DNA from: a virus
DNA: 64,000 bases
IMG/VR virus record: IMGVR_UViG_3300042305_001483
Strand: one strand, 5' to 3'
Position numbers and translations under genes: made by a program. This document shows positions 42,856 through 45,809 of this stretch, piece after piece. Within the stretch, counting starts at the first letter, position 1, and the number at the start of each line of letters is the position of its first letter. Under the pieces are notes generated by a model. It saw nothing but the letters and a program-made list of their open reading frames with translations. It was not told where the DNA came from and did not search any database.

Positions 42856-43217
42856 GAGCACGCGAATTCATGGTTGAACGCAAAGGCGGAAAAATGACCA
42901 AGCGTCAACAAAATCCTACCCGCGGCGTTAACAAATACACTGATGACGATAAGTGGAATAGCGATTACAAATTATATAGATTGGGCTTGGCACTGGCTGC
43001 AACTGATGGAAAAACAATGCCAGAGATGGATGAAGAAAGTTGGATCGGTAGATATAAAAGTCTACATCCATATAGTCAATGTGATCAAGATATGATCAAT
43101 GTTGCGGCTAAAGTAGCCGGAGTTAATATACACGATGTAAACAAAGGTGACATGAGAAGTCAAGAAACACCAGATACTTATACAGTAAGTCCAGTGGCGA
43201 ATTGGAGTAAAAAATGA
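42852..43217 (+). CDS. putative internal head protein
   Basis: MRAREFMVE resembles the T4 internal-protein targeting sequence MKTYQEFIAE. Confidence 0.7.
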   Translation: MRAREFMVERKGGKMTKRQQNPTRGVNKYTDDDKWNSDYKLYRLGLALAATDGKTMPEMDEESWIGRYKSLHPYSQCDQDMINVAAKVAGVNIHDVNKGDMRSQETPDTYTVSPVANWSKK

Positions 43218-45163
43218 ACGAAGAATTTAAAAAAGTTAAATTACCTAATGAAACTAGGTACGTTTTAGAAACAACAACTGCAGGTGCTATTGGAACGAAT
43301 AGTATTGCTACTGCGGAAAAACCCCTAGGTGAACTTCAAAGACGACAGACAATTTCTGTGCCTGTTAATCAGAAGCCTCGTCAAGGTCCGATGAAATCAC
43401 AGACCGGTGCAGGTGCGCATCGTGATAAGAAAAAAGAACAAAAACAAGGTAAAGAAAAACATCGTAAGCCTTTTGATGAAGAGAAAGGTGTAGCAGAAGG
43501 AATTGAACAAGCCGATCTAAGTCCAGAGGTTATTGAAATATCCAAGGATCTTTATAAATCCTTGCGTCGTTCAGCCAGAGATTCGTTACGAGCCAAAAAA
43601 ACTATGTTAGTTATTAAGATAACCCGTGAATTGACCCCTCAAGAAAAAAAACTAGTAGATGACACTATGAATCAATCTGGTATTGAGTATCAGATCAAAA
43701 ATAATGTAAACGATTATGTGTATGGAACCTATAAAAATACATTAATCGGTATACCATATACACAATCTACTACGGAACAAGGTGTGGCGGAAACAACAGG
43801 TGACGAAAAATTTGATAAATCAATGAGAAAAATGACTGGAAAAATTACTCCAGGCGATGCTGACGAGATGTGGCCGACACAAGAATTTGAACCAGTTGAT
43901 CTTGATCCATCATACTTGCCAAGTATGGAAAAATACAAGGCAAAATTATTTCCATTGGCTTACCAATACTGGACTGACGGCGACAATGCAGATGAATTAA
44001 GGGCATTAGGATGGGAACCCGATTATGGCGACGACTATGTTATGGTGGTGCTGTCTGGCATCGGACACGACGGTCACATTCAATACGACAAATATGATTT
44101 TGATGCTGAAGATGAAAACAATGAAGGTGTGGCGGAAGGCGATCAAGAACCTGACCACGAAATTAGCATGGCCAGCAACGAACTCCAAAGTATCATGTCT
44201 GATGCTAAAAAATTATTAGTTCTAATCAAACGTTATAGCGAGATGGAAGGGCTAGAAGCATGGCAACAAAGTAAAATTACTAAATCGGCAGATTATTTAA
44301 CTGCTGTATTGCGCAGCATCGGTGGAGAACAAGGTGCGTTAGAATCTCAAGTTAATGAGTACGAAACCCACACTTATAAAGATAGTCAAGGCAATGTATG
44401 GCGTGTCAACGACGAGGGCGAAAAAGAATTACTTCGTGGAGCACCGGGCAGTAGTTATGGCGGTAGCAGATATGGATCAAGATATCCTAGTAGATCATAT
44501 TCAAAGCCTTCAGGAATGTATTTTTATAACGTAAAACCTGGGCAAGAAAATGATGCACAATCTGCTGGTTTAAAACAAAGCAAAAGTGGAAAATGGTATT
44601 CGACTTATCAAAATTCACAAGCAGATAAATTATTTGGTCCAGGAAAGTTTTGGCAACCAAAAAATGAAGCAAGTGTAGCGGAAGGTATGAATTCTTTATC
44701 ATTCTGGAAGCGTGAAGCACAAAAGGCCGGTGGTGCTGCCAATATTGATTGGTATGCTATTGGCGTCGAACACGGCAAACAAGGTATTGTAATGAATCCT
44801 CCATATGGTGTAGGCGCTAAAGCCGTAACATTATACGGCAAAGGATTAGATGCCGGTCAGCAAGGTGTAGCGGAAGGCAAGAAAAAAGGTGTAGATGGTA
44901 AAGCCTGCTGGAAAGGTTACAAACGTATGGGCACTAAAAAGAAAGGTGGCCGCACTGTAGACAACTGTGTACCAGTAGGCGAGGATTCTTATATCGAAAG
45001 TCTTATGAATCAACTATATGAAAAGGCTCCTCCAGGAGACAAATATGAACGTATAGTCAAGCATATTAAAGCAGGATATAGAAAAGACGGTAAACTAACT
45101 GATGTAGAAAAACGCAAGGCCTACGGTGCTGCTTGGAAGGCAAAAAATAAATCAAAAAAGTAA
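43214..45163 (+). CDS. modular putative polyprotein with repeated GVAE(G) linkers
   Basis: Five (G/S)VAE motifs separating compositionally distinct modules. Confidence 0.8.
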   Translation: MNEEFKKVKLPNETRYVLETTTAGAIGTNSIATAEKPLGELQRRQTISVPVNQKPRQGPMKSQTGAGAHRDKKKEQKQGKEKHRKPFDEEKGVAEGIEQADLSPEVIEISKDLYKSLRRSARDSLRAKKTMLVIKITRELTPQEKKLVDDTMNQSGIEYQIKNNVNDYVYGTYKNTLIGIPYTQSTTEQGVAETTGDEKFDKSMRKMTGKITPGDADEMWPTQEFEPVDLDPSYLPSMEKYKAKLFPLAYQYWTDGDNADELRALGWEPDYGDDYVMVVLSGIGHDGHIQYDKYDFDAEDENNEGVAEGDQEPDHEISMASNELQSIMSDAKKLLVLIKRYSEMEGLEAWQQSKITKSADYLTAVLRSIGGEQGALESQVNEYETHTYKDSQGNVWRVNDEGEKELLRGAPGSSYGGSRYGSRYPSRSYSKPSGMYFYNVKPGQENDAQSAGLKQSKSGKWYSTYQNSQADKLFGPGKFWQPKNEASVAEGMNSLSFWKREAQKAGGAANIDWYAIGVEHGKQGIVMNPPYGVGAKAVTLYGKGLDAGQQGVAEGKKKGVDGKACWKGYKRMGTKKKGGRTVDNCVPVGEDSYIESLMNQLYEKAPPGDKYERIVKHIKAGYRKDGKLTDVEKRKAYGAAWKAKNKSKK

Positions 45164-45203
45164 GTGAGCAGGAACCGCAAGATCCGGCACAGGATCCTGC
45201 TCA
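45154..45203 (+). promoter_or_regulatory. predicted -1 programmed ribosomal frameshift signal
   Basis: In-frame A_AAA_AAG (45154-60) directly before the stop; 9-bp stem tgagcagga/tcctgctca 4 nt downstream. Confidence 0.7.
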
Positions 45204-45381
45204 AGATAAACCTAAATTAAAGCCGGCAGTAAAATTAACTCCTGCCGTGTCATTGGATCAATGGGAACAAACTTTTTTAGATGCTGACCCAGAAAGATAT
45301 CATCAATTTAGAAATAAAACTCCTGCTAAAAAAATTCAAATGGCACAGTCTGCTAGAAAACACGCTATTGAGAAAAACTGA
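45160..45381 (+). CDS. -1 frame extension (~73 aa) of the 43214 protein
   Basis: Open -1 frame VSEQEPQDPAQD…RKHAIEKN*; no start codon or SD at its 5' end; TGA overlaps next ATG. Confidence 0.65.
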   Translation, partial: VSEQEPQDPAQDPAQDKPKLKPAVKLTPAVSLDQWEQTFLDADPERYHQFRNKTPAKKIQMAQSARKHAIEKN

Positions 45382-45809
45382 TGAGAAATTTTATAACATT
45401 AGTCGAATCGGCAAATAAAGGTTGCCCAATTGCCACACATAACATAGATATTAATTTAAAAAATCGGCAAAAAGCCATAGACGAATATCACTACGGGCCA
45501 GCCAATCCCGATAAACCAGAAGATTATTGGAAAAAATCTGCTAAGATATTTGGAGTAAGTGAGACAACTGCTAAAACAATGCGATGCGGTAATTGTGCAG
45601 CATTCGATGTTAGCGATAGCATGAGGGAATGCATTGCAACTGGGATTAAAGGCAACGAAAAAAATATTGACCCAAACGCAACTATAAATCTCAGCGATCT
45701 AGGATATTGTAATTTTTTACATTTTAAATGTGCAGGTAGTCGCAGTTGTAAAGCATGGGTTACCGGAGGCCCAATTACTGAAAAAGATAAAGGTAAGAAA
45801 GCAGATTAA
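45381..45809 (+). CDS. Cys-rich putative internal head protein
   Basis: MRNFITLVES; CGNC…C…C…C…C. Confidence 0.75.
   Translation: MRNFITLVESANKGCPIATHNIDINLKNRQKAIDEYHYGPANPDKPEDYWKKSAKIFGVSETTAKTMRCGNCAAFDVSDSMRECIATGIKGNEKNIDPNATINLSDLGYCNFLHFKCAGSRSCKAWVTGGPITEKDKGKKAD

Follow-up and report, generated by a model that had tools for sequence, protein, structure and literature searches.

How is an open reading frame (ORF) translated when it has no initiation site of its own and follows, in the -1 frame, a gene that ends in a stop codon? This question arises at the 3' end of a phage polyprotein gene, P0001, in a 64,000-nucleotide stretch of DNA (the window) which is part of a 125.5-kb IMG/VR viral contig (IMGVR_UViG_3300042305_001483). 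The original prediction, made from the letters of the window, was that an unannotated -1 ribosomal frameshift at A_AAA_AAG, with a hairpin on its 3' side, extends the polyprotein. Its coordinates were all correct (ORF end, heptamer, stem, GGAAGG, limits of the -1 frame and the TGATG at which the next gene begins), and comparative evidence strongly supports the frameshift. Our answer is that a programmed -1 ribosomal frameshift very probably extends the polyprotein by one module, because many relatives conserve both the signal and an open -1 frame, in a pattern that only translation across the junction explains.

The -1 frame in the window and in relatives

The heptamer lies in the X_XXY_YYZ phase of the 0 frame, as it does in signals of the dnaX/IS911 type (Table 1). 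Upstream, the -1 frame is closed by a TAA at 45148-50. Its open stretch takes in four codons ahead of GTA (45160), with which the new sequence begins, and contains no ATG, GTG or TTG before the GTG at 45247. The extension, whose translation begins KK-VSEQEPQDPAQD..., is therefore an ORF without an initiation site, and it is conserved as coding sequence and fused to the polyprotein in some relatives.

A search with the full 73-amino-acid (aa) extension finds twelve viral loci which match from residue 1, at 54-72% identity. In these loci the matching frame opens 3-5 codons upstream, without a start codon, and is preceded by AAAAAAG-TAA, or by AAAAAAA-TAA in one lineage. An unbiased search was also made, using only the C-terminal domain of the extension as the query (alignment A1, 49 aa), so the slip site and hairpin were outside the query. 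It found 76 loci in viral contigs, 58 of which are distinct.

Most of these loci are of the frameshift type: 33 distinct cassettes have a long 0-frame ORF (up to 811 codons) which ends with the heptamer and TAA, and they carry the domain in the -1 frame. Three more loci (L200, L241 and L242) have a run of nine or ten A (A9-A10) with A_AAA_AAG in phase and a 0-frame stop a few codons later. The frameshift type therefore totals about 36 distinct loci, drawn from many samples and spanning 42-84% domain identity.

In 11 complete loci, the domain instead forms an in-frame fusion with the polyprotein; its frame can be read back without a stop over 367-717 codons, as far as the polyprotein start. Eight further in-frame fusion loci are cut by contig ends. 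The fusion junction reads ...SL..(L/V)(A/S)E|KL.P....D.W and contains no slippery run. It had been foreseen as damaging to the frameshift that relatives might be plain in-frame fusions. This holds only for that minority, whereas most relatives keep the heptamer, stop and hairpin, and the fusions show that the domain belongs on the polyprotein. A stand-alone domain gene with its own start was found at none of the 76 loci.

Two relatives, L015 and L016, are syntenic with the window (64-71% identity for the upstream 121-aa gene and 65-69% for the downstream 142-aa gene). L015 has the frameshift form and L016 the fused form. The cassette alternates in evolution with plain in-frame fusion or loss.

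A decayed copy of the domain was also seen. In L094 (2995-3330), TAA codons stand in place of two conserved Gln residues of an in-frame copy, which a frameshift disrupts further on, while the neighbouring genes are intact. Reassignment of the stop codon was considered for this locus and rejected, because the frame also breaks downstream and the neighbouring genes are intact.

The slippery heptamer and the adjacent stop

All 33 distinct cassettes with an adjacent TAA have AAAAAAG or AAAAAAA in phase, and the A9-A10 variant loci also keep A_AAA_AAG in phase. The codon that bears the first base of the heptamer is always NNA (GCA in 17 cassettes, TCA in 7, AAA in 3, and CTA, ACA and CCA in 2 each), and the residue it places before Lys-Lys varies (A, S, K, L, T or P). 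The TAA is invariant, and the -1 codons which overlap it vary (GTAAGT, GTAAGC, GTAATT, ATAAAA or GTAAAA, giving VS, VI, VK or IK). Since the NNA codon and the TAA are kept while the residues vary, selection acts on nucleotides, not residues.

The sequence upstream of the slip site also differs. The 0-frame C-termini there belong to at least six different modules (e.g., ...AWKAKNKSKK, ...VEELAKK, ...LPEKKKSKK, ...ALESKK and ...YKSHKAKK), so the cassette is kept independently of what precedes it.

Closer relatives of the window allow the run length to be checked. Two independent lake/freshwater assemblies, X9 (2017) and X10, are identical to the window across the site. A third, from a strain with 94% identity (X22), has 0 gaps over 44900-45463 and 34 substitutions, all of which lie outside the heptamer, the stop and the two stem arms. 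None of the three assemblies shows the indel that a sequencing error would have left.

The downstream hairpin

A dnaX/IS911-type signal has a stable structure a few nucleotides (nt) 3' of the heptamer, and such a structure is present here. The 9-bp stem is the minimum-free-energy fold of 45154-45215, at -18.4 kcal/mol. Dinucleotide shuffles of the same sequence give -8.75 +/- 2.6 kcal/mol (z = -3.7 for the window), and 0 of 200 are as stable. Within the unbiased set, a hairpin is predicted in 30 of the 33 distinct cassettes, beginning 4-6 nt past the heptamer, so the conservation that the original prediction called for is there in most relatives. The 6-bp core of the stem, AGCAGG/CCTGCT, is invariant (27/27).

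Codon choice provides a second line of evidence. In the hairpin-bearing cases, the 5' arm is always GAG CAG, and in the background codon usage of the polyproteins these are the minor codons (GAG 16% vs GAA 84%; CAG 23% vs CAA 77%). When the same peptide is recoded synonymously with background codon usage, the natural fold exceeds the recodings in stability in 27 of 27 cassettes tested (z from -3.2 to -7.1, mean -4.8). For the window's own hairpin, z is -3.9 and 2 of 300 recodings are as stable. The Pro/Gln/Ala linker that bears the hairpin sequence is confined to the frameshift class, and the in-frame fusions run directly from ...AE into KL.P.

The hairpin is therefore conserved and selected, and the case for it rests mainly on conservation and codon choice. 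We do not claim support from covariation, as the flanking pairs vary and covary only partly. Covariation was assessed with an anchored count, because MAFFT misplaces the 3' arms where loop lengths differ.

The Shine-Dalgarno (SD)-like element upstream is a different matter. The original prediction included GGAAGG in the signal, and this sequence is indeed present 13 nt upstream of the heptamer, but it is not conserved. It falls in the Trp-Lys-Ala codons of a conserved ...AAWKAK... motif and swaps with GGAAAG in relatives. Just 9 of the 33 distinct cassettes, the ...VEELAKK group, have an SD core (GGAG/GAGG/AGGA) ahead of the slip site; it ends about 6 nt before the heptamer, unlike the 13-nt spacing in the window. 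The window cassette has no GGAG, GAGG or AGGA core upstream of its heptamer, and an SD-like stimulator of the kind that lies about 10-14 nt 5' of the heptamer in dnaX/IS911-type signals was not found. GGAAGG is probably not part of the signal. The signal consists of the heptamer, adjacent stop and hairpin, with no conserved upstream stimulator, and so it is not fully of the dnaX type.

Alternative explanations

Transcriptional slippage could in principle give the same fusion. In this scenario, RNA polymerase adds one A in the run and there is no ribosomal slip. The site is a homopolymeric A-run, and the process is plausible, and may contribute, in six distinct A9-A10 relatives (L184, L222, L227, L241, L242 and L200). 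However, efficient realignment by bacterial RNA polymerase needs about eight or nine identical bases, and the run in the window has only six A, with six or seven in most relatives. The conserved hairpin also comes after the run, as far from it as a ribosomal stimulator would be, rather than upstream in the nascent RNA. Finally, transcriptional slippage gives no role to the conserved G at position 7 or to the adjacent stop. We consider it unlikely to be the explanation here.

Among the A9-A10 relatives, three (L184, L222 and L227) have A9-G followed by TAA and no EQEP hairpin linker.

Somewhat less likely again is that there is no recoding: translation of the domain would start separately, at the GTG at 45247, and give an independent protein of 44 aa, with 45164-45246 serving as an untranslated spacer. 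This GTG is in frame, ESM Atlas has exactly that ORF, and in many relatives a Met codon lies in frame immediately ahead of the domain (KLKPDMPLD). However, no SD precedes 45247, one of the X22 substitutions turns the GTG into GTA, and L015 has no start at that place. The supposed spacer also behaves like coding sequence. Between the heptamer and the Trp codon of the domain, 12 different distances occur (45-129 nt), each of them 0 mod 3, and the -1 phase is open over all 12 lengths; for an untranslated spacer, the chance of 12 in-phase lengths would be about (1/3)^11. Spacer substitutions favour third codon positions, and across the whole extension 12 of the 17 X22 substitutions are at third codon positions of the -1 frame. 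An independent 44-aa protein also gives no reason for the conserved heptamer, stop and hairpin, or for the 11 complete loci in which the domain is fused in frame to the polyprotein.

An artefact or dead gene, i.e., a homopolymer miscall or recent frameshift mutation that split an in-frame fusion, is very improbable: although the window is from a metagenome-assembled contig and in-frame fusions occur in relatives, independent assemblies agree on the run length without indels, about 36 distinct cassettes from many samples keep the -1 arrangement across their whole range of domain identity, and a chance mutation would not bring a conserved adjacent stop and a hairpin linker that is absent from the fused forms.

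Proposed mechanism and points against it

In the ribosomal frameshift that we favour, ribosomes would reach TCA AAA AAG with TAA in the A site, while the GC-rich hairpin, which starts 4 nt further on, stands at the entrance of the mRNA channel. In a fraction of these ribosomes, the two tRNA-Lys would then slip back by one base, from AAA-AAG to AAA-AAA (tandem slippage), with the pause at the adjacent stop and the hairpin both promoting the slip. Translation in the -1 frame would continue as ...KK-VSEQEP... for 73 codons. Most ribosomes would stop and give the 649-aa product, and those that slipped would give a product of about 722 aa, which carries the linker and an extra two-helix module. We propose the slip mechanism because of the dnaX and IS911 precedents.

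Further steps may follow. A prohead protease of the T4 type would cut at V/I-x-E junctions, including the VSE which opens the extension, and the frameshift would set the copy number of the last module relative to the other modules. Translation of the next gene would be coupled to the ribosomes that slipped. The stop of the extension overlaps the next start (ATGA, TGATG or TAATG) in 16 of 31 distinct cassettes, and the next gene differs between lineages; this overlap is consistent with such coupling.

Several points weigh against this reading. First, the heptamer alone is unremarkable, as in-phase A_AAA_AAG occurs 10 times in plus-strand ORFs of the window. No avoidance of in-phase sites was seen there (10 vs 24 and 6 in the other two phases). 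Of the other nine in-phase sites, eight are followed by only 2-12 open -1 codons and one (56962) by 54, and the heptamer at 45154 is the only one of the ten which is at a stop codon and has a hairpin and a long open -1 frame. Second, the slip may depend on the host. Where tRNA-Lys(UUU) is the only reader of AAG, which is the case in E. coli, A_AAA_AAG is a very slippery sequence, and the slip may be much weaker if the host has tRNA-Lys(CUU). Neither the window nor the 125-kb record as a whole yielded any tRNA genes, so a phage tRNA-Lys cannot enter the argument. Third, compensatory changes in the stem are few, because its core is invariant; the inner position 9 is G-C in 13 cases, A-T in 1, T-A in 1 and mismatched in 12. 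Fourth, the spacer, at 4 nt, is near the lower end of the range for -1 stimulators. Fifth, the extra module is dispensable, as the domain is absent from L002 and L013 and decayed in L094.

The conserved domain and the layout of the locus

The domain is predicted to form two helices joined by a conserved ADP..Y.QF turn (AlphaFold2, mean predicted local distance difference test score of 95). Neither it nor the whole extension has a match in Pfam or PHROGs, and Foldseek found no PDB structure similar to the domain at E <= 0.001. A kinship with the DUF6321-like C-terminus of the 0-frame protein was considered and rejected, as the two show no relation (hhalign probability 0.6%). ESM Atlas feature matches for the domain scored below 0.8 and were not used.

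Table 1. Coordinates of features at the frameshift locus, in window positions
Feature	Position	Strand	Details
0-frame polyprotein gene (P0001)	43214..45163	+	649 aa; ends ...AWKAKNKSKK*
SD-like GGAAGG	45135..45140	+	13 nt before heptamer; imperfect
Slippery heptamer A_AAA_AAG	45154..45160	+	codons TCA (45152-54) AAA AAG; X_XXY_YYZ phase
0-frame stop TAA	45161..45163	+	abuts heptamer
-1 extension (probable)	45160..45381	+	73 codons + TGA (45379-81); Pro/Gln/Ala/Lys-rich linker, then conserved domain
Stimulatory hairpin (predicted)	45165..45203	+	arms 45165-73 / 45195-203; 21-nt loop region; 4-nt spacer
Conserved C-terminal domain of extension	45232..45378	+	KL.P...LD.W..F..ADP..Y.QF.NKTP.KK..MA.AA; alignment A1
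Rival GTG-started ORF	45247..45381	+	44 aa; as annotated by gene callers; also in ESM Atlas
Next gene	45381..45809	+	142 aa; N-terminus MRNFITLVES; ATG 45381-83 overlaps TGA of extension (TGATG)

The polyprotein and its possible processing

P0001 is made of unrelated segments linked by five (G/S)VAE junctions, with a VLE motif close to the N-terminus, and the sets of modules differ among the polyproteins of relatives. Its C-terminal ~50 aa match cyanophage proteins, two of which are annotated as DUF6321 domain-containing.

In T4, L/I-X-E is the motif after which the gp21 protease cleaves, and internal proteins are directed to the prohead by short N-terminal propeptides (PMC9026906). Similar V/I-x-E-like motifs, although short, occur at several places in the polyproteins studied here: VSE, VIE or IKE opens the extension, and (L/V)(A/S)E precedes the domain in fused forms. 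Together with the VAE junctions and the N-terminal VLE, these motifs would fit processing by a gp21-type protease, and the polyprotein may be packaged in the capsid and processed by such a protease.

The gene neighbourhood does not show the head-protein context that had been suggested for this gene, but the V/I-x-E junctions and the T4-type protease and capsid genes of relatives fit it. Neither gp21 nor gp23 was found in the window's own 125-kb contig, which is 35% complete. Two related contigs, one with the frameshift cassette (G001) and one with the fused form (G003), both encode a gp21-type protease (Peptidase_S77 family, PF03420, E-values 2.5e-26 and 8.6e-26) and gp23 (PF07068, E-values 1e-96 and 4e-81).

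Three side observations concern the modules themselves. Residues 188-308 of P0001 (43775-44140) form a module with GVAE at both boundaries, and at the protein level it is 98% identical to L002 4330-4620, L005 291-653 and L006 178-540. The remaining modules of those polyproteins are unrelated to those of P0001 or about 50% identical to them. From the sequences, this looks like a recent cassette exchange at GVAE junctions.

The second observation is closer to the slip site. Residues ~602-646 of P0001 (45017-45151) are an extra ~45-aa module compared to L082-type relatives, in which the 0 frame ends ...LMAALESKK*. This module sits between a conserved ...YIESLMNQLYEK helix and the slip site, and it is DUF6321-like and also present in T4-like cyanophages. 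Its position beside the slip site indicates that module insertion also occurs just upstream of the cassette.

Lastly, a gene two upstream of the polyprotein homologue in L002 (1-3150) has a product of >1,049 aa, which combines a LysM-like segment and a T4-lysozyme-like segment (KDHEGVKNKPYQDTKGLWTVGVGHL) with the same small modules (ENFADG..., CWKGYK...). It is a candidate for another packaged multi-module protein.

The source contig and neighbouring genes

The contig has a completeness rating of about 35% and a G+C content of 33.9%. As it is 125.5 kb long yet only ~35% complete, the source is probably a jumbo phage. The public runs which contain the stretch are lake-water and freshwater metagenomes from 22 studies. 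An SD core precedes 27 of 60 ORFs (vs a background of 10%), so a Bacteroidota-like host that does not use SD sequences, which we had considered, is not supported.

No cultured relative was found, as the region has no match in 50,697 phage records (megablast and blastn). With tblastn against the phage records, the extension has no match and the polyprotein matches only over its last ~50 aa, in cyanophages.

Near the polyprotein gene are genes for a Dps-like DNA-binding protein, a carbamoyltransferase and a DNA polymerase. Homologues of the next gene also come after the polyprotein in L013, L015 and L016.

Relation to known frameshift systems

A close match in signal is E. coli dnaX (tau/gamma), which has A_AAA_AAG in the same phase, a stem-loop a few nt downstream and two products, the second of which is inferred in our case. 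There are also differences: the slipped product of dnaX is the shorter one, as it stops almost at once, whereas here it would be the longer; dnaX has a well-placed upstream SD stimulator, whereas none is conserved here; and here the 0-frame stop abuts the heptamer. The orfA-orfAB frameshift of IS911 and the IS3 family shares A_AAA_AAG and a 3' structure, and it likewise fuses a startless -1 ORF near the end of the upstream ORF. However, that frameshift serves a mobile element and its transposase; orfA and orfB overlap over a long stretch, and an SD-like stimulator is present. Our locus belongs to a phage polyprotein gene, and its two frames overlap by only ~4 codons.

Among virion genes, T7 gene 10A/10B and the head proteins of phage A2 resemble our locus in that a slip near the 3' end of the gene gives a minority of the product a C-terminal extension. 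The A2 example is the -1 frameshift in the major head protein of this Lactobacillus phage (Garcia et al. 2004, as cited in PMC10885494). Those are major capsid proteins with other slippery sequences, whereas here the protein is a modular internal polyprotein, probably processed by a protease and possibly virion-associated. The lambda G/GT tail assembly chaperone is another conserved -1 frameshift of tailed phages that was found by comparative genomics and replaced by alternatives in some lineages, but its gene, function and slippery sequence (G_GGA_AAG in lambda) are different.

Retroviral gag-pol is a parallel in logic: the distal part of a polyprotein with protease sites is made in a fixed minority by a -1 frameshift, by means of a heptamer and a 3' structure, as would be the case here. 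It differs in that gag-pol is from a eukaryotic RNA virus and has enzymes in its extension, while here a double-stranded DNA (dsDNA) phage would add a 73-aa module, and the processing is a proposal.

Within the literature searched, we found no report of frameshifting in modular/polyvalent or internal-protein genes of phages. The phage frameshifts found there are in tail chaperones and capsid proteins (T7 gene 10, and phage A2 as cited in PMC10885494), and the word "frameshift" is absent from a survey of polyvalent proteins (PMC5512222). The mechanism itself is known, and what is new is the gene, the phage group and the cassette-like distribution.

Significance

One consequence is for annotation. 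Where gene callers place two genes, one of 649 aa and a 44-aa GTG ORF that appears to be spurious, the correct product would be the fusion of about 722 aa, and dozens of contigs from freshwater jumbo phages call for the same correction.

For the biology of recoding, the locus adds a -1 frameshift that is well conserved, has replicates in nature and lies outside the usual tail-chaperone gene. An experimental series is already available in its natural variants: A6G, A7 and A9-10 runs, forms with and without the hairpin, forms with and without the adjacent stop, and in-frame fusions. The A9-A10 and linker-less variants are useful for separating ribosomal from transcriptional slippage.

For the phages themselves, a wider reading is possible, which we put forward tentatively and regard as more doubtful than not. 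The slip site, stop, hairpin linker and two-helix domain might together be a portable dosage cassette. In a protease-processed, capsid-packaged polyprotein, it would supply sub-stoichiometric copies of one delivered module and, by way of the conserved overlap between stop and start codons, make translation of the next capsid-targeted protein follow the rate of frameshifting. Provided that packaging and processing do take place, a phage could adjust the amount of a single module of its multi-effector precursor, and a portable dosage cassette, if true, would be gag-pol-like logic in a dsDNA phage.

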